This document shows positions 3,513-60,442 of a stretch of 64,000 nucleotides of DNA, one piece after another. How positions within the stretch are numbered: the stretch's first letter is position 1; the number at the start of each line of letters is the position of its first letter. Below the pieces are notes generated by a model. That model searched no databases, had not been told where the DNA came from, and saw only the letters and a program-made list of their open reading frames with translations. The stretch lies in IMG/VR virus record IMGVR_UViG_3300028734_000016; one strand, given 5' to 3'. The position numbers and the translations under genes are program-made. The DNA comes from a virus (lineage: Duplodnaviria; Heunggongvirae; Uroviricota; Caudoviricetes).

Positions 3513-3782
3513 TTGAAATATATAAAAAAATTTGAAAATAAAAAAGATGAACCAAAAGTAGGTGATTATGTAATTTTTGACTGTCCTATGTCATATGATG
3601 TAAAAATGAATAATCTATACAATTATACAGTTCATAAAATTATAAATATATATTGGGATTCATATGAAACAAATCTAGGACTTAATATAAATAAATCTTA
3701 TCTATTAGATTTTTCAGATAACAAAAGAAAATTACAACAATATGTTAAACTAAAAAAAAATACAGATAAATTTAATATATGA
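3513..3782 (+). CDS. member of MK-x-IKKFE ... KFNI small-protein family; apparent TTG start
   Basis: in-frame TAA directly upstream; N-terminus LKYIKKFEN matches paralogs MKHIKMFE/MKFIKKFE; ends KFNI with stop overlapping the next ATG (ATATGA). Confidence 0.55.
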   Translation: MKYIKKFENKKDEPKVGDYVIFDCPMSYDVKMNNLYNYTVHKIINIYWDSYETNLGLNINKSYLLDFSDNKRKLQQYVKLKKNTDKFNI

Positions 3783-4396
3783 AACACATAAAAATGTTTG
3801 AAACATTTACAAATAAAATTACAATAGGAATAGATATTGATGGTACGATATGTGATTTCGTTAATGCATACAATACACTATATAAAAGATACTTTCCTGA
3901 TAAAGAAATAAATCAGGATCAAAATTGGCATTGGTATGAAACAATGGACTATAATGGTGAATCATCAAAAACATGGTTTAATAATAAAAAATCTGAAGTT
4001 TTTGATATTGCTCAACCATATAAAGGTGCTGTTGATACTATAAACAATATATATGATTTTATAAAAACTCATGGTTTCAAATTAAACATAGTAACTAAAC
4101 AACCTACTGAAGAATCTAAAGAATCTGCTAAGAAATGGTTAGACCATTATGGATTTAAATACGATGACATCATTTTTGCTAATTCATCAATGGATAAATG
4201 GAAATATGCTGATATATTAATAGATGATTCTCAAAAAGTTATTGGAAGTAAACCATTAAGTAAAGTATCAATTAAAATTGAACACCCTCATAATACAGAA
4301 ATTGAAGGAGATTTTAATATTCTTGAAATTAATAATCTAACAATTGATATAATTCAGAAAGCTATATCTAAACTTAAAAATAAAACTACTGTATGA
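3779..4396 (+). CDS. HAD-superfamily hydrolase, 5'(3')-deoxyribonucleotidase-like
   Basis: N-terminal IGIDIDGTICDF (DxDGT motif I). Confidence 0.65.
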   Translation: MKHIKMFETFTNKITIGIDIDGTICDFVNAYNTLYKRYFPDKEINQDQNWHWYETMDYNGESSKTWFNNKKSEVFDIAQPYKGAVDTINNIYDFIKTHGFKLNIVTKQPTEESKESAKKWLDHYGFKYDDIIFANSSMDKWKYADILIDDSQKVIGSKPLSKVSIKIEHPHNTEIEGDFNILEINNLTIDIIQKAISKLKNKTTV

Positions 4397-4860
4397 AATT
4401 TATAAAAAAATTTGAAGATAGATATTCTGATATCTTTTTTAATAGTGATGATAGTGTATTTGAAGCTTGTAGAAGAGGAGATTTAGAAGTTGTACAAGAA
4501 TATATAGAAGTTGAAAAAGGTGATGTGAATAATATAGATAAATATGGATATACACTATTAATACTAGCAGCAGATAACAATAGGATAGATGTGGTGAAGT
4601 ATTTAATAGGAAAAGGAGCTGATATAAACTATCAAGATATCTATAATAGAACAGCATTAAATTATGCTACATTAAGAGAAAACAATGATATAGTAAGATT
4701 TTTAATAGAAGCTAATGCTAATTGGAACTTAAAAGATAATTTGGGTAATGATTTTTTGACGTATTTACTACCAATTAATAAGATTAATATAATTGAAGAA
4801 TATCCAGAACAATATCAAAAATATCTAACTATAAAAAAATCCGAAAAATTTAATTTATGA
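4393..4860 (+). CDS. ankyrin-repeat protein
   Basis: G-x-TLL-x-A repeats with DVVKYLIGKGADIN / TALNYA / IVRFLIEANAN motifs. Confidence 0.8.
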   Translation: MKFIKKFEDRYSDIFFNSDDSVFEACRRGDLEVVQEYIEVEKGDVNNIDKYGYTLLILAADNNRIDVVKYLIGKGADINYQDIYNRTALNYATLRENNDIVRFLIEANANWNLKDNLGNDFLTYLLPINKINIIEEYPEQYQKYLTIKKSEKFNL

Positions 4861-4888
4861 AAAAATATAATCAATTCATTAATGAAAA
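4849..4888 (+). repeat. conserved ~40-45-nt gene-junction repeat (AAATTTAAyATATGAAAAAATATAAyCAATTCATTAATGAA); copies also at ~5274, ~5634, ~6046
   Basis: four near-identical copies read directly in the sequence at consecutive gene boundaries. Confidence 0.8.
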
Positions 4889-5288
4889 TAGAGCATACGG
4901 TAAAGATAATAAAACCAATGATTTTAATTTTAATTTTTTTATATTATTAGAAAATGCGACAGAAGAAAACCAAAGTAAAGCATTTGAAGAATTTAATAAA
5001 TATGTAAATTTAGAATCACATAATATAAAAAATTTATTAATAACTAAATCAAATATTGATGATTTTAAAAATACAGAAATTGAATGGCTTTGGTATATTA
5101 ATGTATATGAGAGTTGGGGTAATGTACGAATACCAAGAGATACAATTGATTTCTTTAAAATGAGATCTACTGATCTTCGTAGTAGTGATAATTTAATTAT
5201 TTCATTAGATGAATTTATTAAAATTGGATTGAAAGGAGTTGAAACTCTTTATAAAGTAAAAAAAGATGCAAATAAATTTAATATATGA
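4857..5288 (+). CDS. MKKYNQFINE...KFNI paralog 1
   Basis: identical 10-aa N-terminus and KFNI tail; ATATGA stop/start overlap. Confidence 0.7.
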   Translation: MKKYNQFINENRAYGKDNKTNDFNFNFFILLENATEENQSKAFEEFNKYVNLESHNIKNLLITKSNIDDFKNTEIEWLWYINVYESWGNVRIPRDTIDFFKMRSTDLRSSDNLIISLDEFIKIGLKGVETLYKVKKDANKFNI

Positions 5289-5650
5289 AAAAATATAACC
5301 AATTCATTAATGAAAAAAATTCTGATGTATTTAAAGTTTCAATAGATATTAAAAATATCACAGATGACGATTTATATAAGCTCAATGAAATATTCAAAAA
5401 ATATTTTGACATTTATGATATTATAAGTCAATATGCGTCATATAGTAATAAACCTCATACATTGGTTTTAGATATAAGTAACAATAAAATAACTACTTGG
5501 TGTATTACAACACCTGATTGGGGTTATGATGAAGATTATATTATAAATATTATTAAACCTGAAGAATTGTTAAATGCTAGATCAAATGGAATTAAAGATA
5601 TTGTAGAATATCTTGAAGCAAGAAATAATACAAATAAATTTAATATATGA
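5285..5650 (+). CDS. MKKYNQFINE...KFNI paralog 2
   Basis: as above. Confidence 0.7.
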   Translation: MKKYNQFINEKNSDVFKVSIDIKNITDDDLYKLNEIFKKYFDIYDIISQYASYSNKPHTLVLDISNNKITTWCITTPDWGYDEDYIINIIKPEELLNARSNGIKDIVEYLEARNNTNKFNI

Positions 5651-6063
5651 AAAAATATAATCAATTCATTAATGAATCAAAAGATATATGGCAAAGAGAA
5701 TCAACAAAAGATGAAACATATGGTCCTATTTTTTACATAAAAAGACCAGGATTTAAGACTGGAGTGTATGATGGAGATATAGTTAAATTAGATAAAGAAT
5801 ATATTGAAAAATTAGACTCTGTATTATATAATAGACATAATGAAAAAAAGACGACTGACAAATTTACTGATAATGATTATAGTAAAGAATATGTTCTAGT
5901 TGATTATGTATGGTATTATGGGTATGTATTAAGAAATTCACTATCTGATATAGAAGATAATGATTTCTTAGGATGGGTACCAACAGGATATGTTAGACAC
6001 CTAACAGACGAAGAAATGAAAGATTATCAATATAAAATACATGCAAAAAAATTTAACATATGA
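5647..6063 (+). CDS. MKKYNQFINE...KFNI paralog 3
   Basis: as above. Confidence 0.7.
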   Translation: MKKYNQFINESKDIWQRESTKDETYGPIFYIKRPGFKTGVYDGDIVKLDKEYIEKLDSVLYNRHNEKKTTDKFTDNDYSKEYVLVDYVWYYGYVLRNSLSDIEDNDFLGWVPTGYVRHLTDEEMKDYQYKIHAKKFNI

Positions 6064-6434
6064 AAAAATATAATCAATTCATTAATGAAAGTTCTAAAAC
6101 TAAATTCAGGTTTGCAATAAATATTAAAGGCATAACAGATGAACAAACAGATCAAGTTATTGATAAACTCAAAAAATATAATCTAAGTCAAAGTGATGAA
6201 CACACTATAAGAAATGATGTAAAAATACAAGGTTTTTATTCAATAATTGTTGATGTGTCAAATTATCCAAATAATACACATATATTTATAATTGCTGTTT
6301 CCACACGAGGATGGGGTAATAATATTGATTATATGCAAAATATGCTATCAATAGATAATTTTTTAGTTATACCATTTGATGATATATATGATAATATTCA
6401 ATATAGAATATACGCAAAAAAATTTAACATATGA
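6060..6434 (+). CDS. MKKYNQFINE...KFNI paralog 4
   Basis: as above. Confidence 0.7.
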   Translation: MKKYNQFINESSKTKFRFAINIKGITDEQTDQVIDKLKKYNLSQSDEHTIRNDVKIQGFYSIIVDVSNYPNNTHIFIIAVSTRGWGNNIDYMQNMLSIDNFLVIPFDDIYDNIQYRIYAKKFNI

Positions 6435-6976
6435 TACATATTAAAAAATTCGAATTCTACGATACCAAAGAATTTACACGTGATTCAGAACCAGAAATAA
6501 ATGATTACGTTAGACTTGATGAAGATTTCTATGAATCTAAAATACCTGAATATTTTATACCTAGAGAAAATGACACAGACTATAAATATAGAATAGGTAA
6601 AATAATTGGATATAATGAACATACAGAACACTATAACGTTAAATTTGATAAATATGAATTGTGGAATAATAATTTTTTAGTTAAACGTGAACAAATAAAA
6701 AGCTATTCTAAAAAAATTGAAGATCTGGAAAATCTGCCATCTGTTGGAGATTATTGTCTGCTTGGTTGGGATAATACGGAATTGTGTAAAGTAATAAAGA
6801 AAGAAAGAGTTGAAAATTTTAGATGGGCTTCAATTGATTATAAGGTTAAAAAAATGAATCCTGGTCCTCACGATGGCACAGGAATTGTTCAAACTGATGA
6901 TGATTCAATGAAATATTGGTCAAGCGATATAAATGATATGAAATCAATTATAGCATCAAAGAAATTTAATGTGTAG
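6431..6976 (+). CDS. hypothetical protein (MIHIKKFE...KKFNV); TAG stop overlaps tRNA 3' end
   Basis: 181-aa ORF, family-type termini. Confidence 0.6.
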   Translation: MIHIKKFEFYDTKEFTRDSEPEINDYVRLDEDFYESKIPEYFIPRENDTDYKYRIGKIIGYNEHTEHYNVKFDKYELWNNNFLVKREQIKSYSKKIEDLENLPSVGDYCLLGWDNTELCKVIKKERVENFRWASIDYKVKKMNPGPHDGTGIVQTDDDSMKYWSSDINDMKSIIASKKFNV

Positions 6977-7046
6977 CTTGAGAGGGATTCGAACCCTCAC
7001 TGAAACGCATTTGAAACGCCGTCCTCTGCCGTTGGGATACCAAGCC
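6975..7046 (-). tRNA. tRNA, anticodon loop UUCAAAU (CAA, leucine-type), short variable loop, A73
   Basis: hand fold: 7-bp acceptor (G1·U72), perfect T-arm GAGGG-TTCGAAT-CCCTC, anticodon stem rich in G·U; identity uncertain. Confidence 0.5.
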
Positions 7047-7047
7047 A

Positions 7048-8145
7048 TTATTTTAACCACTTCTTAACTGCTTTACCAGTTACTCCATAAACTCTACCAA
7101 CAGCTTCTAAACTTGTATCAGATATCATTAATCTTAACTCATCTTTTGTTGGTCTGTTCTTTACTTTTCTTTCAGATAATCTGTAGCAGTCATAACATTG
7201 TTTAGAATTGTGTTTAATTTCTTTTCCACATGCACAATAATTTTTTATTAAATTATTGTTTATTTTAATTTCTTTTTTACCTGATTTTAATTTTTTTATT
7301 CTATCATTTCTAATTATATTATAATAATATTCATCAACTTCACTTTTGATATTTAAATTTTTAACACCAAGAAACTCATACATTTTTTTGAAATCTACTC
7401 TTCTATTTACGTTTATTCTATAACAGTTATCTTTACTTATTTGTATAGTATAATGAATATTTATAATATCAAGTGAGTTACAATAAATATCTACTATATC
7501 TTTAGACATATTAGAAAAATTATAATAATAACCGAAATATTTTTTTCCTTCTTTTTTAATTATTGTATTTTTATATAAGCAACCATCTGAATGAAACAAT
7601 CCACGTATTATGTTTTTGTGATTTATATTTTTTATTTGAAAATCTTCTAGTATTATTTTTCTTTTGTGCTTTACTCCTTTTCCTATTTGAGGAAATAAAT
7701 ATTTTAAAGAGTTGGAATATACTGAAACAATAAACATATTATATTTAGTTTTATGAATATTTATTTTATTAAATGGAAATAATATTTTTAAATTATTTTC
7801 ACATTCAGTTACTATATTATAATACTTACTATCTAAAAATATTCGAATTTGATATGATGATCTTTTTGTTTTTATTATATGACCATCTCCTAAATATAAT
7901 CCTAATATATAATTATATTCTAATTTTTTATCAGATAAATAATTATTAATATCACAATTATTTTTTAATTTTTTTTGATTTTCTAATTTATTATATTGAT
8001 TGAATTTTTCATTGTTATTTAACCAATATCTAATATTACTTCTTGGTATATTATATTTTTTACTTAATTCTGACTGTTTTGATCCATTATTATATTCTTC
8101 TATTATTTTTATGATTTCACTAACTTCATATACTCTATATGTCAT
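7048..8145 (-). CDS. LAGLIDADG homing endonuclease (two LAGLIDADG motifs) with N- and C-terminal HTH-like regions
   Basis: YILGLYLGDGHI and IIRGLFHSDGCL motifs; tracked ORF extends to 8295 but that extension translates the tRNA gene, so the ATG at 8145 (MTYRVYEV) is preferred. Confidence 0.85.
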   Translation of the reverse strand: MTYRVYEVSEIIKIIEEYNNGSKQSELSKKYNIPRSNIRYWLNNNEKFNQYNKLENQKKLKNNCDINNYLSDKKLEYNYILGLYLGDGHIIKTKRSSYQIRIFLDSKYYNIVTECENNLKILFPFNKINIHKTKYNMFIVSVYSNSLKYLFPQIGKGVKHKRKIILEDFQIKNINHKNIIRGLFHSDGCLYKNTIIKKEGKKYFGYYYNFSNMSKDIVDIYCNSLDIINIHYTIQISKDNCYRINVNRRVDFKKMYEFLGVKNLNIKSEVDEYYYNIIRNDRIKKLKSGKKEIKINNNLIKNYCACGKEIKHNSKQCYDCYRLSERKVKNRPTKDELRLMISDTSLEAVGRVYGVTGKAVKKWLK

Positions 8146-8249
8146 ATTATTTTTTATTTTATATATAAAAAATTCTATGACAAAAAGAATAAAAATTGAA
8201 CATATTTTTAAATAAATTGTATCATAATGATTAATCATTGAATATATTG

Positions 8250-8337
8250 TACTCCTGGTCGGACTTGAACCGACACGCCTACTATTGTTCAGCACATGTT
8301 TCTAAAACATGGATGTCTACCATTCCATCACAGGAGC
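8250..8337 (-). tRNA. tRNA-Leu (anticodon TAG), type II with long variable arm, A73
   Basis: hand fold: acceptor GCTCCTG/CAGGAGT, D-loop GGAATGGTAGAC, anticodon stem CATGT/ACATG loop TTTAGAA, T-arm GTCGG-TTCAAGT-CCGAC. Confidence 0.85.
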
Positions 8338-8346
8338 GATTTTTTG

Positions 8347-8433
8347 TACCGATGACGGGACTTGAACCCGTATAAGCATATAGCTTGCAAAATTTTAAGT
8401 TTTGAATGTCTACCAAGATTCCATCACATCGGC
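8347..8433 (-). tRNA. tRNA-Leu (anticodon TAA), type II, A73
   Basis: anticodon stem CAAAA/TTTTG loop CTTAAAA; ~16-nt variable arm; T-arm ACGGG-TTCAAGT-CCCGT. Confidence 0.85.
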
Positions 8434-8441
8434 ATATTTTG

Positions 8442-8521
8442 TACTCCTAGAGGTATTCGAAACCTCATCCAAATGGACATCATCTTAAGTGATGCGTGTA
8501 TACCAATTCCACCATAGGAGC
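8442..8521 (-). tRNA. tRNA, anticodon TAA (leucine-type) with only ~11-nt variable region, A73
   Basis: acceptor GCTCCTA/TAGGAGT, Leu-like D-loop GGAATTGGTATAC, anticodon stem CATCA/TGATG loop CTTAAGA, T-arm GAGGT-TTCGAAT-ACCTC. Confidence 0.6.
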
Positions 8522-8566: not shown

Positions 8567-8778
8567 TATTTTTAATATGCTTATATTATTTGTTACAATA
8601 GATATGACATAATATTCTCAGTCCGATTATTCTGTAATAATAGGTTTAAGAGTAGCAAGTTCATTATGTTATTGTAGTTTTTCATATCAGTATATATTAT
8701 CTTAAAAATGTGATTTTTTTCTATTTTTATTATGTAGTACAAAAGTACAAAAAAGTTTTCAATCTACCAAACTTTTTA

Positions 8779-12221: not shown

Positions 12222-12231
12222 TACAAAGATA
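12222..12231 (-). promoter_or_regulatory. TAtcTTTGta box upstream of the SPFH lipoprotein gene
   Basis: ~50 nt upstream of the ATG at 12170. Confidence 0.45.
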
Positions 12232-12300
12232 CTTCGTTTATTTGAATTTACCAAACTTATTTATGATTATTTTATATAATAAACAAAATAAACATATTAA

Positions 12301-15427: not shown

Positions 15428-15436
15428 GCAAAGATA
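15428..15436 (-). promoter_or_regulatory. TAtcTTTGc box ~36 nt upstream of the clpP ATG
   Basis: plus-strand GCAAAGATA. Confidence 0.45.
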
Positions 15437-15558
15437 AGGAAATTTTTTGATTTACCAAAGGAAAATCATTATTATTTATATAAATAAACCTATAATTGAA
15501 TAATAAACTGATATGATTTATTGTACGATTATAGGTTTATTATAAAGTTGATTCAGAT

Positions 15559-34322: not shown

Positions 34323-34874
34323 ATGAAAAAATTAGCATGGAAAAAAGTAAATGGTGAAAAAATTGAAAGCATAAATGATTATGTATTAAATTATGTAAAA
34401 AATATTGATAATGACACCAAAGTAATAGTTGGTTGTGATTCAGATAGTCATATGCATAGAACCAAATATGCTATTTCTGTTGTTTTTTACAATGATCAAA
34501 AAAATAATGGTGCTCATGTGGTTTATGCAACATATACTGAGCCTAAAGTTAAAGATATTGTGACTAAATTGTGGAATGAAGCGTTGTTAGCTCATGATGT
34601 AGCAGAATCTATTAATGAAACATTAAGTGATAATAATTACAAGTATAAATTTAATAAAAATCATTATGATGACTCAACTCCAAATAAGTTGGTAGAAATT
34701 CATGTGGATTTGAATGAAAAAAAAACAACAAGGAATGGTGCAAAAATGTCAAATAACAAATCAAATAAGGTTTATAACGATGTTATGGGATGGTTATGTG
34801 GAGAAAAATATAAAGTAATGGGAAAGCCAGATAGTTTTGCATCAAGTTCTGCATCAGATCGTTTGTGTAAATAA
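34323..34874 (+). CDS. hypothetical protein
   Basis: 183-aa ORF. Confidence 0.55.
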   Translation: MKKLAWKKVNGEKIESINDYVLNYVKNIDNDTKVIVGCDSDSHMHRTKYAISVVFYNDQKNNGAHVVYATYTEPKVKDIVTKLWNEALLAHDVAESINETLSDNNYKYKFNKNHYDDSTPNKLVEIHVDLNEKKTTRNGAKMSNNKSNKVYNDVMGWLCGEKYKVMGKPDSFASSSASDRLCK

Positions 34875-34980
34875 TTTTTTATTTTAAGAGTTAAAATAGA
34901 AAAAAATCAATTAAAAATGTTTATATATAAGTCATATAATTATGATTAAAAATCTGATAATAAAAAATATTAACTGCTCT

Positions 34981-35020
34981 AACCTAGTGAGACTTTTTTA
35001 AAGTTTACTAGGTTTTTGTA
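34981..35020 (+). terminator. hairpin AACCTAGT...ACTAGGTT followed by TTTTTG
   Basis: 8-bp stem, 18-nt loop, T-run. Confidence 0.4.
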
Positions 35021-35024
35021 TTTA

Positions 35025-35158
35025 TATCAAATGAGAGATCCAGGTTAATGTCCTGGCTAAGTAATATAAAAGTTACCTTAGGTGTGTGTGAGCTATCTCT
35101 CTTTTTTAAATTTTACAAAGAAAGAAGGTGAAACATTAGGTTGTTTCACTTTTTTTTA
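35025..35158 (+). ncRNA. candidate structured small RNA of unknown class, ORF-free and relatively GC-rich, ending in a hairpin+T8 terminator
   Basis: nested stems: GAGAGAT(35033-39)/ATCTCTC(35095-101) enclosing CCAGG-TTAATGT-CCTGG and CTAAG-(15 nt)-CTTAG; 3' hairpin GTGAAACA-ttaggt-TGTTTCAC then T8. Confidence 0.45.
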
Positions 35159-35218
35159 TTATATTTGTTATAGTAAAAAAATATAGTAAAAAATATAATA
35201 ATTAAGATTTTTAAATAG

Positions 35219-36070
35219 ATGATTGAAAATGATAAAAGTGATATATTATTTTGTTGGAAAGACGATGATAATATATATGTACAGGTTAATATTCCGTATG
35301 ATGAATTTACGAAAATAAAAAATATGGTTAGTCATTATGTCTACAGAGTATATCAAACACATGGATATAAAAATCCATTATATAGCAATAATATTGAGGA
35401 TAAATTATTAGAAATTGGTGGTTTTTATTATCACACAGAATATATTAATAAATTCACAAATAATAGAAAAGTATATGAGAATATGATGAAGATTAATGAT
35501 ATAAGAGATAAAGAATCATTCATTAGATTTTTAAGATATGGAGAATTATTCAATCAATATCATTATTCTGGTAAAATGTTTTTTAATAATTATCATACTG
35601 TTGAAGAGTGCTCTACAAAAGGAACAAGAGCTGAAATATATGCAAGAGGTAATTTTGAACTGTATATTAATGACAAATGTAAAAAACTAAAAAATATAGA
35701 TGATGAAAAAAACAACATCACAAATCCAAATAAAAACATAACAGATTTGATTAAAGTTAATTTTCCAAAAAATGCAAAAGAAGATTTTAATGGAATAGAT
35801 GGATCATTTACTTTTAATAATCAAATATTTACAGTTCAAGTAAAACCATTTTTACACAAAAAAGAGAATGGTGATAATATTGAAATCAATTCTAATGGAT
35901 CAATGACATTTAATACTCATTATCTGGTATTATACAAAGAGACATGTATTAATAAAAAATTCACATATGATATTATAATACTACAAAATGGATATAATAA
36001 AGATAAAATAAAAATTGATGGTAATAATTATATTACAAATAAAAGAAATCAAGTAAACGAAAAAGAGTAG
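35219..36070 (+). CDS. hypothetical protein
   Basis: 283-aa ORF. Confidence 0.6.
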   Translation: MIENDKSDILFCWKDDDNIYVQVNIPYDEFTKIKNMVSHYVYRVYQTHGYKNPLYSNNIEDKLLEIGGFYYHTEYINKFTNNRKVYENMMKINDIRDKESFIRFLRYGELFNQYHYSGKMFFNNYHTVEECSTKGTRAEIYARGNFELYINDKCKKLKNIDDEKNNITNPNKNITDLIKVNFPKNAKEDFNGIDGSFTFNNQIFTVQVKPFLHKKENGDNIEINSNGSMTFNTHYLVLYKETCINKKFTYDIIILQNGYNKDKIKIDGNNYITNKRNQVNEKE

Positions 36071-36095
36071 ATTTTTAAATCTACTCTTTTTTATT
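36061..36095. terminator. bidirectional hairpin AAAAGAGTAGAT...ATCTACTCTTTT + T-run
   Basis: near-identical copy at 56481-56514. Confidence 0.6.
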
Positions 36096-36504
36096 CATTT
36101 TTAAATTTCTTCAGTCTTTTAATATCATCTTTCAAATCTTTACTATAATATTTAATTAAAAATTCAACATCACTATTTTTTATTTCATAGTAATCTTTAA
36201 TTAAATTTATATCATTATTATTAAATTCTGATTTTATTTTATTTTTTGATGGTTGTTTTGTTTTCCACCACCAATCAGGTGTACCATTTGTTGTACCATA
36301 AAAAATCTGATACCAAATATCCAAAGATGATGATTTGTCAATATTTTTATTGTTGAAAAATTGAGCCTTTCTTATATCTTTATAAGCAAACTTTCTATTC
36401 AATACAAAAAAAGCATCTTTTTTCTCATCATCTGTTATAAATTTATACTTATCTTTATCTTTAAATATAATATTTGCAAGTGTTATGAAATCTACTTTCG
36501 CCAT
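36091..36504 (-). CDS. hypothetical protein
   Basis: 137-aa ORF. Confidence 0.5.
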   Translation of the reverse strand: MAKVDFITLANIIFKDKDKYKFITDDEKKDAFFVLNRKFAYKDIRKAQFFNNKNIDKSSSLDIWYQIFYGTTNGTPDWWWKTKQPSKNKIKSEFNNNDINLIKDYYEIKNSDVEFLIKYYSKDLKDDIKRLKKFKNE

Positions 36505-50153: not shown

Positions 50154-52682
50154 TTAAACTTTAGTATTTTCTGTCAATATGTTACCATTCTTAATTTCGT
50201 TATTTGAAATTTTAAAGATTTTAACTGAAGAACTTTCTTTATCATATATCAATGATAATGTATCACCAACTGATATTTCTTGATCAATAATAGCATCAGT
50301 AAGTTTATCTTCAATATTACTCTGAATGACTCTCTTTAATGGTCTTGCACCATAATTTTCATCATAACCATTTTCAAATAAATAATCTTTAAGTGATTGA
50401 GATATAATTACATCATATCCTTTTTCTTTAAGATTTGAAATTAAAGATTTACATTCAACATCAACAATGCTACAAATGTTTTCTTTACTCAAAGAATTGA
50501 AATTGATAACTTCATCTACACGATTTAAAAATTCAGGACTAAAAACTTTTTCTAATTCTTTTTTAAGAACTGAATTTTTAGAGTCTTGATTATTTTTATT
50601 AAGTCCAAATCCAATACCAGTACCAAAATCTTTCAATTTTCGTGAACCAGCATTTGTTGTCATAACAATAATAGTATTTTTAAAATCGACTTTACGTCCA
50701 TTACTATCTGTCAATACACCATCATCCAACACTTGAAGAAGGATATTTTGAACATCAGGGTGAGCTTTTTCAATTTCATCAAGAAGAATAATAGAATAAG
50801 GCTTACGTCTAACTGCTTCAGTTAATTTACCACCATCTTCATATCCAACATATCCAGGAGGTGCTCCTACTAATCTAGATACTGAGAATTTTTCCATAAA
50901 TTCACTCATATCAATTCTAATCATAGCATCTTCAGAACCAAATAACTCCTTTGCCATAATTTTAGCAAGATATGTTTTACCTACTCCAGTAGGTCCTGAG
51001 AAAATAAATGTGCCAACTGGTTTATCATGACTATTTATACCAACTCTTGATCTCTTAACTGATTGAACTATTTTGTCAACTGCTTCATCTTGTCCAATAA
51101 CAATAGTTTTAACTTTATTAGCCATATATTTAAGCTTATTGTTTTCATCAACAGAAACATTATCTACAGGTATTTTTGTTATAAGAGCAACAACTTCAGC
51201 TATATCCTGTTGTGTTACCAAAGGACGATTATCAGAATGTGATTGACTCCATGTTTCTTTTTCAGTTTCAAGTTCAGATTTCCATTGTTTTTCATTATCT
51301 CTATGTTCAGCAGCAATTTCATATTTCTGATTTGAAATACAATCAAGTTTTTCCACAATAGATATTTTTATTTTTTTGCTGAGTTCAACAATTTTTACAG
51401 GAATAGCACTTGTACCATTAACGTGAACCATAGCGCCAGCCTCATCAAGAACATCAATTGCCTTATCTGGAAAGAATTTTTCTGATATATATTTACCAGA
51501 CAAATTAACACAAGCTTCTAATGCATCATCAGTATATGTAACTTTGTGATGATCTTCATATTGTTTTTTTATATTTTTCAGAATTTCTAAAGTTTCTGAC
51601 TTACTGGTTGCCTCAACAACAACTTTCTGAAATCTACGTTCTAATGCAGCATCTTTTTCTACATACTTACGATATTCTTCAAGTGTAGTAGCACCAATAC
51701 ATCTAAATGTACCTCTTGCTAATCCTGGTTTCAACATATTGGAAGCATCGAGTGAACCTTGGGCTGAGCCAGCACCTATAATAGTATGAATTTCATCAAT
51801 AAAAAGAATAATGTCAGGATTTTCTTCCATTTCTTTGACAATACCTCTTAATCTTTGTTCAAATTCACCACGATATTTAGTTCCTGCTACTAAAGAACCC
51901 ATATCAAGAGTAATAATTTTCTTATCCTGTAAATTTTCAGGAACAAGTCCATCTACGATTAACTGAGCCAATCCTTCTACAATAGCAGATTTTCCTACTC
52001 CAGGTTCTCCTACCAAAACAGGATTGTTTTTCTTACGTCTTGATAAAATCTGTGAGATTCTTTTAATTTCATCTGCACGTCCTACTACTGGATCAAGTTT
52101 ACCTTCTTTTGCAAGATTGGTCAGATTTGTACCAAATTGATCAATCAATTTAGTTTTTGATTTGCTCTTTCCTTTTACTTCTTGTTCTTGTTCTTCGTCC
52201 ATGTTACTATTTTCTAATTCATCATTAATATTAAGTTCATCTTCTTCATTTTTTAATTTGTTTTTTAAACTTCTTAAAATTTCAGGTGATTTATTAAATA
52301 AATCTGAAACAAGGTTATTATTATTATCCAATATTGCATAAAAAACATGCTCAATACAAACTTCATCTGAGTCCATTGATTTGGCAAAAACCACAGATTC
52401 TTTTAGAATTTTTTCAGTTTCTAATTCTAATGGAATAGAAGCATTCTTTCTAAGAGAATTCAAACCATTCTGTTTTTGTAAATCTTTAGACCAATCACGA
52501 ATTGTTGATTTGATAGCATTAATATTGAGATTTAAATCTCTCATTATATTAGATGCTTCAGAATATTCCTCATCTATCATTGCTAAGAATAAATGCTCAG
52601 GCCTGATTGTGTTAGATTGAATAATAATTGCAATTCCCTTACTTAGTTTAATAACTTCTTCTACTTCTTTCGAGTAATTCAT
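50154..52682 (-). CDS. clpC: ClpA/ClpC-type AAA+ unfoldase (two Clp_N repeats, D1 and D2 ATPase modules, short middle region, IGF-type ClpP-docking loop)
   Basis: [15 protein letters not shown] + ILFIDEIH (D1); [15 protein letters not shown] + [14 protein letters not shown] (D2); GTGIGFGL loop. Confidence 0.9.
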
Positions 52683-54010: not shown

Positions 54011-55651
54011 ATGAGTTTAATTTTAAGACAACAAAAAGGAGAAAGATTAACTATAACCGAAATGGACGGTAATTTTTCATATTTAGAATCTCTATCTGGC
54101 ATTTCTCACACATCAGGAACAAATGGAAGTTCAGGAACAAATGGAAGTTCAGGAACAGATGGAACATCAGGAACAGATGGAACATCAGGTACAAATGGAA
54201 GTTCAGGAACAAATGGAAGTTCAGGAACAAATGGATTAAGTGGAGATAAATATACTACATTTTCGAATAATACATTAGAAATATCAACAGGAGGTACAAT
54301 ATCATTTTTTGTTGAGCCTAATTTATCATTATCTACAGGACAAGATATTATAATAACACATGACTCATCAAATTTAATGATAAATTATATATTATCATAT
54401 AATAAAATAACAGGTGAAATATTTTCAAATATTACTTCATCTATTGGTAGCGGAACATATAATTTTTGGAATGTATCATTAAATGGTGCTCCTGGTCCTT
54501 CAGGAATAGATGGAACATCAGGAATAGATGGAACATCAGGAATTTCAGGAACAGATGGAACATCGGGAAGTTCAGGAACAGATGGAACATCAGGAATAGA
54601 TGGAACATCAGGAATAGATGGAACATCAGGAATAGATGGAACATCAGGAATAGATGGAACATCAGGAACGAATGGAACATCAGGAAGTTCAGGAACAGAT
54701 GGAACATCAGGAACGAATGGAACGTCAGGAACAAATGGAACGTCAGGAACAAATGGAACATCAGGAACAAATGGAACATCAGGAAGTTCAGGCACAAATG
54801 GAACATCAGGAACGAATGGAACGTCAGGAACAAATGGAACGTCAGGAACAAATGGAACATCAGGAAGTTCAGGCACAAATGGAACATCAGGAACGAATGG
54901 AACGTCAGGAAGTTCAGGAACCAATGGAACATCAGGAAGTTCAGGAACCAATGGAACATCAGGAAGTTCAGGAACAGTATCATTAAATGGTACAACGAAT
55001 TATGGACTACTTACATTAAATGTATCATCTCCAAATGTAAATGTTGAAAGTGGATTAACATATCATAATTCATTATTAAATTTAAATGGTAATTTAATAT
55101 TACCAAAGTTGTCAGGAACAGGTATAATGATAGACAATACAACACCGACATTTGGATATAAAGATTTAATCGGTCAGATAATACCAAGGGTTGGTGGATC
55201 TACTGCTCCTTCATTATCACCGTTAAGAGGAACTAATATACTTAATTATACATTTCAAGTTAATGATAAGATAGATAATATTACATATCATATGCCACAT
55301 GATTATTTACCAAACTCTGATATATATTTACACACACATTGGAGTCATAATGGTACAGCAATTTCAGGAACATTTGCATTAAACTATTATGTAAATTACA
55401 GTAAAGGTTATAACCAATCAGGACAAACATTCAATTCTGAATTGACTATACCACAAACAATTTCTGTAACAGGAACAACAGATCGTCCAAGATGGGGACA
55501 TTTTATAGATGAAATCAAATTAAGTAATATAGGTGGAGATTCAACTCATTTAAATACATCATTATTAGAAATTGATGGAATTATTGAAATTGCATTAAAT
55601 GTAAATAGTATACCTACTATAACAGGGGTACAACAACTAATCCATTTATAA
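54011..55651 (+). CDS. collagen-like repeat protein (two G-T-S-G-x-x-G blocks) with a non-repetitive C-terminal domain; fibre/fibril candidate
   Basis: 546-aa ORF; preceded by (AAAAAACATT)x3. Confidence 0.8.
   Translation: MSLILRQQKGERLTITEMDGNFSYLESLSGISHTSGTNGSSGTNGSSGTDGTSGTDGTSGTNGSSGTNGSSGTNGLSGDKYTTFSNNTLEISTGGTISFFVEPNLSLSTGQDIIITHDSSNLMINYILSYNKITGEIFSNITSSIGSGTYNFWNVSLNGAPGPSGIDGTSGIDGTSGISGTDGTSGSSGTDGTSGIDGTSGIDGTSGIDGTSGIDGTSGTNGTSGSSGTDGTSGTNGTSGTNGTSGTNGTSGTNGTSGSSGTNGTSGTNGTSGTNGTSGTNGTSGSSGTNGTSGTNGTSGSSGTNGTSGSSGTNGTSGSSGTVSLNGTTNYGLLTLNVSSPNVNVESGLTYHNSLLNLNGNLILPKLSGTGIMIDNTTPTFGYKDLIGQIIPRVGGSTAPSLSPLRGTNILNYTFQVNDKIDNITYHMPHDYLPNSDIYLHTHWSHNGTAISGTFALNYYVNYSKGYNQSGQTFNSELTIPQTISVTGTTDRPRWGHFIDEIKLSNIGGDSTHLNTSLLEIDGIIEIALNVNSIPTITGVQQLIHL
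54470..54970 (+). repeat. coding 9-nt G-x-x collagen-like repeat block (second block; first at ~54100-54240)
   Basis: antisense ORFs 54385-55047 are repeat artefacts. Confidence 0.8.
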
Positions 55652-56517: not shown

Positions 56518-59500
56518 TTAATAAACTAATTCTAAGTGAGAAACTAATTCTTCGTCTTTATCAACTTCAATTGATGCATCAAAATTTATACTATGCACCT
56601 GTTCAATAATTACAATTTTATTTACTTTATTTTTCAACTCATCAATAAATTCTAAAAATTGCTGAACAGATTTTGTTTTTTTACCATCAATTAATTTACC
56701 CATAATTTCATCCAATACAATAAACGTAGATTTTGATTTGACATTTATTTGTCGTAATGCTATCTTCAATGCAAGAGCACAAAATGTTCTTTCTTTTCCA
56801 GAACTTTCAATTGCATTTTGACTGGAATCTAGCCTATCATCTGCACTAAGCCTTAAATTTAAATTATCATCAAAAAATAATGTAAAATTAACATTTATTA
56901 ATAATTCATTCAATTCTTTATTAATTAAATGAATAGACTTTTTCAATAAAAAAGTAGGTAATCCATCACGACTAATACATTTTTGATACTCCTTTAATAA
57001 CTCATCTTTTTTCTTTTGTTTTAAATATTTTTTTATCTTAGTTGAAATTATAAAAATATCATTTTCTTTGAGTATAATATTTTTTTCCATTTCTATATTT
57101 ATTTGTGATAAATTTTTTATTTGTTCTTTAACGACTTTAATATTATTATCCACATCATCTATTGATAATTGAATAATTTTATTTTCATCTATTTTAACTT
57201 TATATTCTTGATATTTTTCTATTTCTAATTTTAGTTCTTTTATTTTAAAATTAAAATTTTCGATTGATAAAATAATATTATCTCTATTTGACATTTTTCT
57301 GTTTCTTAACTCAAAATTATCTTTCTTAGTTTCCTCAATTGAAATATCATCATCTATACCTTCAACATTAAAATTTTTCAATTCAGACTCAATATTTTTT
57401 ATTACAATTGATGTATCTAATTTGCCTTTTTCTATGTTTTTTATTAGTTCTTTCCCTTTCTCAATATTTTCATTTAATGTTTCAGATTCATCAAATATGT
57501 TATTCTCAATTTTTTCTATTAATTTATTTAAATCTAAATTGTCTTGAGTCAACTTCTTACTGCTACCAATTTCTTTCAATTTAGATAATATATCATCAGG
57601 GTATTCTCCTTGAATTAACCTTTTTTTCATGTCTTCCAAATTAAGAATATTTGTATTACATTCAATAGATTCATTTTTTAAATCTTTATACTTTAATATA
57701 CAATCTTTAATTATCAAAGAATTTGGTTCTTTTTTAATTTCAAGACTTTTAATTTTATCTTCTAAATGAGCTAAGTGTTCTGAATATTTTGGATCATTTT
57801 TATCATAATCTCTACCACAGCTAGGACAAGATTTTGAATTTTTGAATGTTTCTATTTCTTTATCTAATTCCTCATTTGAATTTTTAGCGTTAACTCCATC
57901 TTTTTGTAATAATTTTATATTAGATGATAATTCTTTTAAATTTAATTCTAATTCTTGAATTTCTGATGTTATTTTTTTTATTTCATCCTTTATGATATTA
58001 GATTTATTATTTTTAATAACTTCAATTTGTAAATCATTTGCATTTATTTTTGATGATATTTTTCTAATTTCAGATTGTTTTAATTCATCAATTTTAATAT
58101 TAACTTTATCTATTTTATTATCAGATTCTAATAATGAAGTTTTCAAATTTGAAATTTCATCTTTTCGTTCAGAAATTTTCAAGTTCGTTTGCTTCAATTT
58201 AATTTTATATTCATCAAGTTTAGATGAATCGAATTCAGTAGGTAATTTATCAATGTCTCTATCTAAAATTGTGCTTTGAATTTTAGATTCTTCAATTTTA
58301 GATTCATAATTGTTGATGGTATTCAAATTTAAATCTTCATTAAAAGTTAACATTGATAAATCAATATTATTTAATTTTTTATTTAAATTATCTCTATCTG
58401 TATTATAATCAGATAATTCTTTTTCATGCTTCTCAATATCAGAATTATTAGTATCAATAATATCTTTAATATCAATAATTTCAGTATTCAATTCTTTCAC
58501 ACGAGATTCAGAATCTTGAATATTTACTATTAATTTTTCTTCTACTAATTCTTTTTTATATTCTTTAAATTCATTCAATTTAATTTCAAAAATATCATAA
58601 CCAGCATCTCTGATGATGTTATCCATAAATACACTTCTATTTTCTGATAATAAATCATTTAAATTATCAGCATTAGTGAATGACAATCTAATAAAATCTT
58701 TCAAATCTCCTAAAATAGAGTCCAATTCTTTTTGAGTCTTAGCTTTAATTTCATCTGTTAATTTATTTTCTTCACAAATATTCTCGCTTTTATAAAAATC
58801 CAATGATGTAGGACAGCTTGTTAATGCCGTGTGATTCTTATTCCAAACTCTTTCTGTCTTTCTCTGAATAACGAATTTATTACCATTTGAATTAATAATT
58901 GCACCACCATTAACATAATCTAAATCTCTTTTGTTATTTATATATCTTGAATCTCCAAATTTTTCAGGACTTAATGTTGTCGTAGTCTTACCATAAAGAA
59001 TATAAGTAAGTGCATCTAAAATAGTTGTTTTACCTTCCTGATTTTCTCCATGAATTTGTACAATTCCATTAATATCAGCCCAATCTATAACATTATCATC
59101 TCCATAAGATTTAAAATTACTAAACCAGAATTTATCAATACTCCATTCAGTATTTTTTAAGCATTCTACCAATTGAACTCTACTATTTATTATATCATCA
59201 ATTTTAAGAATAGATTCAATATCATCTTTTTTGTATTTTTGCTCTTCTAAATATTCATTAAATATTTCTTTCTGTGTTTCAGTATCAGTCAAATCAATTG
59301 ATTCTGATAGCATTTTTGATGATAATATATCTGTGTATAAATAAACTTTTTCAAAAATAACTTTAGTTGTGCTAAATTTATTTTTAATATAATCTCTTAT
59401 TTTCTTTTCATTAACAGTATTTATAATTGATGAATATTCTTTCCAATGAACTTTAATTTCAGTATCTGTTCCAATTTTATCAGCAGACAAATTTAAATTG

Positions 59501-60273
59501 TCATAATCTGATGATTCATCAATATAAAGATTTATGAAAGTGTGTTCATTGTCAATATCATATTCAGTGACATCAAAATCTGATGGTGATTTTATATCCC
59601 ATAATAAAAAACCATGATTTTCAATTGTTTCACCATATGATTGTTGTATAGTTGAGCCACAATATGCAGCAGATTTATCATTTCTTAAATACTGACGCTT
59701 GTGGATATCACCTATTAGCACAAAATCATTATTATTAAAATAATTCATATTTTTGTACTTGTTTGCATCATTAAAAACTTTACCAGTATTTGATGTTACA
59801 TTTAAAACTGGGTCATGAAATAACCCAATATATATTTTACCATCATATTTTTTAATATTTTTCCATGGATCGTTGTCTTTATCTGAGTGTTCATAAACAA
59901 CCCAAACAAAATTGTTATCTTGCTTATCATCATAAAATCCAGTTTTATCATAATAAGTAACATTTGGATTATTCATTAGTTTAACTACAGTTTCTATGCT
60001 GTCGATTCTATTTAAATTTTTCTTACGAATATCATGATTACCACGAACTATTATAACTTTAGCAATTTTTGATAATTCATTTAAGAAATTTCCAGCTATA
60101 ATTTCAGCTTCATTTGAAATTTCAATATAACTTTCAAATAAATCACCAACAATAACAATTCTATCTGGTGTAATTTTGCGTAATTTTTTTATTATTTTTT
60201 GAAAAATATCATTATATTCTTCATGTCTTTCAAGGTTTCTAATGTGAACATCAGCTAAGTGAGCAATTTTCAT
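56518..60273 (-). CDS. fused SbcD/Mre11-type nuclease + SbcC/Rad50-type ATPase, single 1251-aa polypeptide
   Basis: N-terminal phosphoesterase motifs HLADVH, VGDLF, RGNHD, IGDIHKRQ; Walker A GENQEGKTT; long coiled coil with CPSCGR zinc hook; C-terminal SSGKERTF...IVLDEIMGKLID and VHSINF. Confidence 0.85.
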   Translation of the reverse strand: MKIAHLADVHIRNLERHEEYNDIFQKIIKKLRKITPDRIVIVGDLFESYIEISNEAEIIAGNFLNELSKIAKVIIVRGNHDIRKKNLNRIDSIETVVKLMNNPNVTYYDKTGFYDDKQDNNFVWVVYEHSDKDNDPWKNIKKYDGKIYIGLFHDPVLNVTSNTGKVFNDANKYKNMNYFNNNDFVLIGDIHKRQYLRNDKSAAYCGSTIQQSYGETIENHGFLLWDIKSPSDFDVTEYDIDNEHTFINLYIDESSDYDNLNLSADKIGTDTEIKVHWKEYSSIINTVNEKKIRDYIKNKFSTTKVIFEKVYLYTDILSSKMLSESIDLTDTETQKEIFNEYLEEQKYKKDDIESILKIDDIINSRVQLVECLKNTEWSIDKFWFSNFKSYGDDNVIDWADINGIVQIHGENQEGKTTILDALTYILYGKTTTTLSPEKFGDSRYINNKRDLDYVNGGAIINSNGNKFVIQRKTERVWNKNHTALTSCPTSLDFYKSENICEENKLTDEIKAKTQKELDSILGDLKDFIRLSFTNADNLNDLLSENRSVFMDNIIRDAGYDIFEIKLNEFKEYKKELVEEKLIVNIQDSESRVKELNTEIIDIKDIIDTNNSDIEKHEKELSDYNTDRDNLNKKLNNIDLSMLTFNEDLNLNTINNYESKIEESKIQSTILDRDIDKLPTEFDSSKLDEYKIKLKQTNLKISERKDEISNLKTSLLESDNKIDKVNIKIDELKQSEIRKISSKINANDLQIEVIKNNKSNIIKDEIKKITSEIQELELNLKELSSNIKLLQKDGVNAKNSNEELDKEIETFKNSKSCPSCGRDYDKNDPKYSEHLAHLEDKIKSLEIKKEPNSLIIKDCILKYKDLKNESIECNTNILNLEDMKKRLIQGEYPDDILSKLKEIGSSKKLTQDNLDLNKLIEKIENNIFDESETLNENIEKGKELIKNIEKGKLDTSIVIKNIESELKNFNVEGIDDDISIEETKKDNFELRNRKMSNRDNIILSIENFNFKIKELKLEIEKYQEYKVKIDENKIIQLSIDDVDNNIKVVKEQIKNLSQINIEMEKNIILKENDIFIISTKIKKYLKQKKKDELLKEYQKCISRDGLPTFLLKKSIHLINKELNELLINVNFTLFFDDNLNLRLSADDRLDSSQNAIESSGKERTFCALALKIALRQINVKSKSTFIVLDEIMGKLIDGKKTKSVQQFLEFIDELKNKVNKIVIIEQVHSINFDASIEVDKDEELVSHLELVY

Positions 60274-60442
60274 ATATTTATCTAATATTATTTTATTTTA
60301 TTTTTAAGTTTATATTTTTACAAATATAATGAATTTATTTCATAAATCAAAATATTTATAGTTTAACTTTATTTTATATGATCAAAAACATTAATTGTTT
60401 TATAATATATAATAAATTATTAAAAAATAAACAATAAAAACT

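Follow-up and report, generated by a model that had tools for sequence, protein, structure and literature searches.

What is encoded in the spacer that follows a gene for an RNase H-like protein in the genome of an uncultured large phage? We address this question for a stretch of 64,000 nucleotides (nt), hereafter the window, from the virus record IMGVR_UViG_3300028734_000016 (Caudoviricetes). Its spacer 34875-35218 contains, at positions 35025-35158, an element that a first-pass annotation of the bare sequence had singled out as a candidate small RNA, free of open reading frames (ORFs), built of nested stems and ending in its own terminator. We show that the core of this element, a three-way junction at 35033-35101 on the plus strand, belongs to a genuine and previously undescribed family of structured, non-coding, plus-strand phage RNA. 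As to how it works, we lean, by a modest measure, towards a stand-alone structured small RNA, a discrete species of ~70-135 nt that acts in trans through its folded junction.

Results

The element folds into a three-way junction

We folded positions 35025-35158 with RNAfold. The plus strand exactly reproduced the nested structure read by the first-pass annotation, whose stems, loops and T-runs all lie where it had placed them, at -36.7 kcal/mol; dinucleotide shuffles (n = 200) reached -23.1 +/- 3.3 kcal/mol (z = -4.17), none of the 200 being as stable as the native sequence, and the minus strand folded more weakly (-27.1 kcal/mol). In the minimum free energy (MFE) fold, the core junction (35033-35101, +; 82.4 bits and E = 2.6e-19 with the covariance model described below) comprises three plus-strand helices. 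P1, of 7 base pairs (bp), joins GAGAGAT (35033-35039) to ATCTCTC (35095-35101); P2 consists of CCAGG (35040-35044), the loop TTAATGT (35045-35051) and CCTGG (35052-35056); P3 (35057-35081) pairs CTAAG (35057-35061) with CTTAG (35077-35081) and is lengthened by RNAfold to CUAAGUAAU/GUUA-C-CUUAG (DNA arms CTAAGTAAT...GTTACCTTAG). A 13-nt strand that is unpaired in the fold, J3/1 (GTGTGTGTGAGCT, 35082-35094, +), leads back to P1, and a T6 run (35102-35107, +) lies directly 3' of the latter. P1 and P2 are contiguous and form a 12-bp stack: the linker J1/2 measures 0 nt and J2/3 0-1 nt, and J3/1 is long and conserved. This is the family C topology of Lescoute and Westhof, which is seen in compactly folded aptamers and ribozymes and argues that function depends on tertiary folding. 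A tertiary pairing between the P2 loop and J3/1 left no covariation visible by eye in the model-based alignment, and no complement of J3/1, searched for as a base-pairing target, was found anywhere in the window. The element is present once in the 64,000 nt according to the covariance model run with filters off, and a window-wide search for exact or near-exact repeats did not find a second copy. It also stands out by its composition, as had been noted in the first pass: local G+C is 0.33 over 35000-35149 vs 0.10-0.17 in the flanks, the window as a whole having ~22%. Two terminator-type hairpins flank the junction, H0 upstream (34981-35017, +) and T2 downstream (35120-35157, +).

The RNA is confined to a lineage of large phages

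Protein-anchored searches retrieved six virome contigs of 58-235 kb with the same spacer, which is 89% identical overall across them and in which compensatory changes are already present. A search with the RNase H-like protein itself (183 amino acids (aa); gene 34323-34874, +; PF04308, E = 5e-21) returned 66 relatives of 51-86% identity, and diverged copies of the element were found on the contigs of L017, L019, L020, L025, L026, L029 and L030. From 12 variants we built a covariance model, R1; further members were found by DNA-pattern scans independent of any protein, which added the virome members L041-L045 and L087 and 14 metagenome loci from lake-hypolimnion, sediment and other records. The model gives true members 72-104 bits. 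The contigs that carry the ~20 distinct homologues, from lakes, sediments and viromes, measure up to 501 kb, and all homologues keep a junction of 58-72 nt. No member was detected among 185,579 bacterial and archaeal genome representatives, in which three pattern matches were all rejected by the model. The RNA is confined to a lineage of uncultured large phages with ~22% G+C and contigs of up to 501 kb, and in the literature that we searched on DUF458/YkuK and on structured RNAs of phages the motif is not described.

Covariation supports a non-coding RNA on the plus strand

Covariation was assessed in a model-based alignment of 21 distinct sequences and 20 modelled pairs. Firstly, standard pairs occupy 93.5% of the cells, against 86.9 +/- 0.7% in column shuffles and 44-62% in a control in which the 3' partners were slid by 1-3 columns, and both-sided changes occur in 14 of the 20 pairs, a level reached by 0 of 500 shuffles; the sequences being phylogenetically related, the shuffle statistics overstate independence and these figures are not probabilities, but chance is still no tenable explanation in view of the slid controls and of how many distinct pair types occur. 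P1 is paired in 99.3% of cells, with six of its seven pairs covarying (variants GAGAGAU/AUCUCUC, GGGAGGU/AUCUCCC and GGGGGAU/AUCCCUC), and P2 in 99.0%, with three of five (CCAGG/CCUGG, UCGGG/CCCGA and CUGGG/CCCAG). Both helices are also found by RNAalifold on a plain MAFFT alignment, 9 of 14 pairs being compensatory, and P3 is a hairpin, 14-28 nt long, in 17 of 19 variants. Secondly, 32 cells hold G·U pairs that would be A·C mismatches if read on the minus strand, and the functional strand is therefore the plus strand. Thirdly, the most conserved parts are the unpaired ones. The P2 loop follows the T-loop-like consensus K-U-R-A-D-G-U, and J3/1 is nearly invariant, G/U-rich and 13-14 nt long (GGUGUGUGGAAGCU; consensus per position G-(G/A)-(U/A)-GUGUG-(G/U/A)-(A/G)-(A/C)-GCU). 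Finally, the core is not coding, since its length (58-72 nt) covers all three mod-3 classes and stop codons interrupt the frames: they stand in all three frames in 5 of 20 variants only, and no single frame is open in every variant. ORFs read through the entire RNA in L046 and L068. Compensatory changes across diverged homologues and the lack of a coding signal, which together define a new Rfam motif in generic terms, were thus both found. The first-pass proposal of a structured small RNA, which hung on covarying homologues and on a discrete transcript, has thereby gained the former (14 of 20 pairs; 93.5% vs 44-62%); the latter we infer.

These results bear on the simplest explanation, namely that the region holds nothing special and consists of terminators one after another, of hairpins that an AT-rich spacer forms by chance, or of part of a small protein gene called in error. 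H0 and T2 are indeed terminator-like, public gene calls of 52-82 aa lie over the region, and the read-through ORFs of L046 and L068 would fit a protein gene. However, pairing in P1 and P2 is kept at 99% even though the flanking proteins of these sequences are only ~60-70% identical, and the invariant unpaired J3/1 is not a terminator feature; the G+C-containing hairpin with a U-run that characterizes intrinsic terminators is found in the flanking H0 and T2, not in the junction core. Moreover, indel lengths do not follow the triplet period, the frames are interrupted by stop codons, and neither the length of the ORFs (6-116 aa) nor their frame is conserved. The chance-hairpin and mis-called-gene readings are refuted by the covariation and by the frame analysis, and we give this explanation practically no credence.

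Comparison with known RNAs

With Rfam 15 at gathering thresholds, the whole window and eight related loci gave no match at the element, and permissive scans returned only chance-level matches (13-23 bits vs thresholds of 40-90). The first-pass annotation had called the element partly tRNA-like but lacking a T-arm. As a statement of membership the former is not supported: the Rfam tRNA model RF00005 gave no match even at E <= 10 (window 34800-35300; L029 3556-3900), and ARAGORN detected only four tRNA-Leu genes in the window (6973-8521) and no tRNA or tmRNA (transfer-messenger RNA) at the element there or in 13 related loci. As to the latter, a 13-nt single strand does stand where the T-arm would be, but the 5/7/5 arm of the relatives is more T-arm-like than anticodon-like, in a comparison that is not significant (E = 0.22).

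The likeness nevertheless has a precise form. P1 is exactly 7 bp long and stacks contiguously on P2, a 5-bp hairpin with a 7-nt loop, as in the acceptor/T-arm minihelix of a tRNA, and the variable-length P3 recalls the long variable arm of class II tRNA. The only other match of R1 in the window (8326-8371, -; 16 bits, E = 0.22, not significant) falls on the T-arm of the tRNA-Leu at 8346-8433 (ACGGGUUCAAGUCCCGU). Between this arm, ACGGG-UUCAAGU-CCCGU, and the P2 of most relatives, UCGGG-UUGAAGU-CCCGA, there are three base differences, which hints at a derivation of P2 from a T-arm. U1...A5, as in a T-loop, are kept in 13 of 20 loops, and genes of the CCA-adding-enzyme family lie nearby in L017, L025 and L030. 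The RNA could accordingly be a tRNA-derived mimic, in which P1 on P2 would imitate the minihelix and act as decoy or substrate for a tRNA-recognising enzyme or for a host defence that targets tRNA. Yet the strand connectivity is the reverse of that of a tRNA: the 5/7/5 geometry of P2 notwithstanding, it joins the 5' strand of P1 and not the 3' strand, so that the 5' strand is the continuous one. The RNA has neither a D arm nor an anticodon arm; most relatives are without CCA or a free 3' end, no free acceptor end being left in those that carry the outer stem P0 described below; and the loop has G/G, U/U or U/G at positions 1 and 5 in seven variants, the window (UUAAUGU) among them. Together with the negative ARAGORN and Rfam results, this leaves mimicry of tRNA, in our estimate, strongly doubtful. 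The idea of an attP site or tRNA fragment was rejected: no acceptor 3' strand comes after the T-arm-like hairpin, which itself covaries. A replication origin or R-loop primer was rejected as well, as GC skew merely tracks gene strand with nothing special at 35 kb, and the G·U pairs argue for structure at the RNA level.

Among phage RNAs, rnaC and rnaD of T4 (species 1 and 2 RNAs) are likewise small non-coding RNAs of a T4-type phage. They are stable RNAs, encoded in a tRNA cluster and processed with the tRNAs, and their function is still unknown; rnaC carries a T-arm-like hairpin. Their architecture differs from that of the RNA described here, and homology was rejected: run with filters off over T4 68000-76000, R1 gave no significant match at 70908-71171, its best score on T4 being 7.2 bits at the edge of rnaC. 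The pRNA of phi29 is also a phage-encoded stand-alone RNA organized around a three-way junction, and it works as a structural component. However, the element does not match RF00044, and loop-loop complementarity that could form a ring was not seen; the phage of the window has T4-type baseplate genes, in contrast to the phi29-like podophages with protein-primed genomes to which pRNA belongs.

With the aptamers and ribozymes of family C (purine and TPP riboswitches, hammerhead) the RNA shares helices stacked without a linker, a long conserved third strand, conserved unpaired nucleotides, a variable peripheral helix and a size of ~70 nt. Unlike them, it has no signature nucleotides, no Rfam match and no expression platform overlapping P1, and unlike the riboswitches it is not consistently upstream of a gene. 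Phage genomes often carry self-cleaving ribozymes, small junction RNAs whose unpaired nucleotides are conserved; size, three-way junction, invariant unpaired strand and loop positions and a phage-borne origin would fit a new class of them, and self-cleavage would free the RNA from a longer transcript where no terminator follows. No positive evidence for cleavage was found, though, and Rfam shows no ribozyme similarity, the sole match (Hatchet, 15.6 bits vs a threshold of 51) lying elsewhere in its locus. We therefore see only a very slim chance that the RNA is a ribozyme.

The RNA lies within a module of constant order

In an extended alignment, the elements upstream of the RNA follow a constant order: stop codon of the RNase H-like gene, a variable stretch, a promoter-like box, an ATG, H0, an AU box and the RNA. 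The box (AAAAAAATCAATTAAAAATGTTTATATATAA, 34900-34930, +; AAAAAACCATTTTTAAATATTAATATATAA in relatives) is kept in 19 of 19 aligned variants, unlike the variable stretch that precedes it, and in L017, L026 and L087 it accompanies the RNA, not the RNase H-like gene. It is a putative promoter that would open the module. Other genes of the window are preceded by boxes of the type TTTT-ATATATAA, and consensus promoter scans were uninformative in DNA of 22% G+C.

Downstream of the box, an ATG kept in 18 of 19 variants opens an ORF of 19 codons (34942-35001, +; MIKNLIIKNINCSNLVRLF*) whose stop codon lies in the loop of H0. The spacer is thus structured, as had been claimed in the first pass, but it is not strictly free of ORFs. 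GGAGA is found 5' of the ATG where the leader is longer (L025, L046 and L052), so that the ATG at 34942 may be a real start. Across variants the ORF ranges from 6 to 116 aa and neither peptide nor reading frame is conserved; its stop falls within or beyond H0 in 17 of 18 variants. Where ORFs cross the 3' arm of H0, they do so in the same frame (..RFLYFKNT..) in 9 of 10 cases. The short ORF could encode a leader peptide through which read-through of H0 would be coupled to translation. A promoter-like box, a very short non-conserved ORF and a terminator hairpin reached by that ORF recall the leader-peptide attenuators of trp and pheA; in contrast to these, what follows is a structured RNA and not a biosynthetic operon, and there are no regulatory codon runs and no evident anti-terminator.

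H0 itself (AACCTAGTGAGAC/GTTTACTAGGTT plus a U-run; stem 34981-35014) is of the intrinsic-terminator type: in 19 of 19 variants it is a hairpin of 14-20 bp with an A-tract 5' and a U-rich tract 3', though the stem sequences differ, and in the fold of the whole spacer 34981-35014 is a closed hairpin. An AU box (TTGTATTTATA, 35016-35026, +; GTATTTTAAAAATACAC in relatives) follows H0 in every architecture, 2-8 nt ahead of the first base that pairs, and is a candidate -10 element or processing site.

The module keeps together when it is displaced. In L017 it stands 787 nt from the RNase H-like gene, beyond two ORFs on the opposite strand, and a separate terminator comes after that gene; the separation is 1026 nt in L043 and 1199 nt in L060, and in L087 a GIY-YIG endonuclease gene on the opposite strand stands between gene and module. 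Genes resembling GIY-YIG/NUMOD homing endonucleases occur near the module at L087 1963-2982 (locus plus strand, opposite to the RNA) and L026 1372-2172, and insertions of this kind may be why the RNA lies at such different distances from the RNase H-like gene. The position of the box between the upstream gene and H0, together with the movement as a block, indicates that H0 is part of the module. Hence the hairpin and T-run at 34981 exist as described in the first-pass annotation but are not simply the terminator of gene 34323-34874, and its view of the element as an independent unit, bracketed in the window clade by terminator-type hairpins, is supported. In public records, ORFs of 52-82 aa are called over H0, the upstream hairpin domain described below (domain A) and part of the RNA at L020 3610-3777, L026 3702-3950, L029 3606-3764 and L030 3615-3800; the non-coding module has probably been mis-annotated in these cases.

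A reduced form with its own terminator in the window clade

Judged by the alignments, the window clade is the minimal form of the family. Outside P1, most relatives add a stem P0 (GAUGGUGA/UCACCAUC), of which four of seven pairs change on both sides, and an upstream hairpin domain of ~65 nt with the apical sequence AAUGrrGUCGnGryCAUU and some covariation in its lower stem (for example L029 3693-3787 and L061 596-690), which brings the full RNA to ~170-190 nt. Both additions are missing in the window, L005, L007, L019 and L042, and L060 is without the upstream domain only; the window clade has lost P0 and the upstream domain. In the place of the P0 3' strand, the alignments show the U6 run and a purine-rich linker (35102-35119, +; 18 nt, UUUUUUAAAUUUUACAAA), P1 followed by U6 being found in the window clade only. 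T2 comes next. It reads GGTGAAACA-TTAGGT-TGTTTCAC followed by T8, and a consensus scan, which found 5 terminator sites vs 0.4 expected, calls it as GAAAGAAGGTGAAACA-TTAGGT-TGTTTCAC-T8 with 16 pairs and a T-run, in agreement with the first-pass description; the upper stem-loop consists of GTGAAACA (35128-35135), TTAGGT (35136-35141), TGTTTCAC (35142-35149) and T8 (35150-35157), all on the plus strand. Stem and loop are identical in the window, L005 and L019, with one G·U change in L007, and T2 is unchanged among clade members whose flanking proteins are 68-86% identical. It is specific to this clade: the claim that the element has its own terminator holds there and fails for most relatives, which end at P0, directly abutting a convergent gene.

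This organization bears on a further possibility, a riboswitch or attenuator leader for the gene of 283 aa that follows (35219-36070, +; no family assigned). Junction, terminator and gene are a classic arrangement, the junction strand is aptamer-like, and in the window clade, L020 and L042 the gene after the RNA has the same orientation. In L017, L025, L026, L029 and L030, however, the gene 3' of the RNA is convergent and often abuts it, leaving no gene to regulate. Furthermore, T2 is separate from P1, MFE and centroid folds form both without any evident competing or anti-terminator helix, T2 is absent outside the window clade, and the downstream protein drops to 34-45% identity while the RNA is nearly unchanged. 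The opposite orientation of the next gene excludes a leader of the downstream gene as the function of the family and largely refutes it for the 283-aa gene, for which we regard it as very unlikely.

Linkage to the RNase H-like gene

The element sits between this 283-aa gene and the YkuK/DUF458 RNase H-like gene, and it is the upstream neighbour that is constant. Of the loci found by DNA pattern alone, which involves no selection through the protein, 14 have the RNase H-like gene on the same strand 5' of the RNA at a distance of 111-1199 nt, whereas the downstream neighbours vary; four pattern-found loci were uninformative on linkage, among them L052, with 882 nt of upstream sequence devoid of the gene. 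YkuK is a member of the RNase H1 clade for which no substrate is known (PMC3985635). The RNA might therefore be a dedicated partner, substrate or regulator of the adjacent nuclease, either in a ribonucleoprotein or as a structured 3' part of its mRNA recognised by the enzyme or by a host RNase. On the other hand, the upstream block (Metallophos gene, small genes and RNase H-like gene) is syntenic even in L023 and L031, which lack the RNA, so that the linkage is explicable by conserved gene order and is no proof of a functional pair. The module has its own promoter-like box and is separable from the gene by opposite-strand genes, L052 shows none in its upstream sequence, and distant YkuK-like genes (26-54% identity) have no such RNA beside them; in the phage collection the protein matches only huge uncultured phages, at 26-29% identity and with no RNA adjoining. 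We consider a role tied to the nuclease unlikely. Decidedly unlikely, in our view, is its more specific form, a dedicated phage ribonucleoprotein in which the junction would guide, activate or restrain the nuclease, for instance against host tRNA-like or RNA:DNA substrates. In a related variant, the T-loop-like hairpin and the G/U-rich strand would dock onto tRNA elbows or decoy a tRNA-directed defence.

The phage and its genomic setting

The window encodes a T4 gp9/10-like baseplate protein, a ClpB-like ATPase, an NAD-dependent ligase, a thymidine kinase, a fused SbcD/SbcC-like protein and four tRNA-Leu, which identifies the source as a large tailed phage; no DNA match to the window was found among 50,697 deposited phage genomes. 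TTTG-N19-TAnnTTTG sites (for example TTTGGTAAAT...TATCTTTG) stand upstream of several genes and of the tRNA cluster, with pattern matches on the minus strand at 8740-8771, 12224-12255, 15429-15459 and 60321-60351, although overall enrichment is weak (10 in the window vs 5.9 expected). This pattern is the housekeeping promoter consensus of Bacteroidota, and the host therefore probably belongs to that phylum.

Other features of the window are unusual phage cargo: the SbcD/SbcC fusion (56518-60273, -; 1251 aa), with a calcineurin-like phosphoesterase domain and an SMC/AAA_29 N-terminus, and a full-length gene for a ClpB-type double-AAA chaperone (50154-52682, -). The four tRNA genes (6973-7046 and 8249-8521, -), three of them in tandem, are all tRNA-Leu, with anticodons CAA, TAG, TAA and TAA. 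A repeat array with a 9-nt period (54052-~55000, 43 registered copies) lies inside the ORF 54011-55651 (+); it is a three-residue repeat of a 546-aa protein, overlaid by spurious ORFs on both strands. Seven small genes at 3779-6976 (+) have overlapping stop and start codons and the repeated junction AAATAAATTTAATATATGAAAAAATATAA, which suggests a tandemly duplicated array of paralogous genes. A perfect bidirectional terminator (36059-36092, AAAAAGAGTAGATTT...AAATCTACTCTTTTT) separates the convergent genes 35219-36070 (+) and 36091-36504 (-).

Discussion

The reading towards which we lean is that the RNA is the payload of a small autonomous module composed of the promoter-like box, the short ORF, H0, the AU box and the RNA, with T2 added in the window clade. 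The source of a discrete species would be the AU box just upstream or, alternatively, transcription that reads through H0 once the hairpin has been melted by a ribosome translating the short ORF. The RNA would then act in trans, its compact junction offering a specific binding surface for a protein or a small ligand, and not as a coding sequence, a tRNA or the leader of the next gene. Several points weigh against this scheme, beyond the relatedness of the aligned sequences. The promoter, the 5' end and the 3' end are all predicted from sequence, and the partner, be it protein, ligand or target, is likewise hypothetical. The AU box does not resemble the Bacteroidota-type promoters elsewhere in the window and is not enriched there as a word. 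Most relatives have no terminator after the RNA, so that a discrete 3' end would need processing or P0 as a stop. Lastly, the constant linkage to the RNase H-like gene could mean a role in cis or as a partner instead of a free trans-acting RNA.

To our knowledge, a structured RNA that combines strong covariation with invariant unpaired nucleotides almost always serves a defined biochemical purpose, for example the sensing of a ligand, catalysis or the scaffolding of proteins, and we know of no non-coding RNA biology in this lineage of large phages. Gene callers place spurious small ORFs across the RNA in public metagenome records, and the covariance model would allow it to be annotated correctly. 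As the RNA lies in a compact, portable module beside an RNase H-like gene, the pair is directly testable by binding, cleavage and expression assays; should the two form a ribonucleoprotein, this would provide the first function both for an orphan nuclease family and for a new class of RNA.

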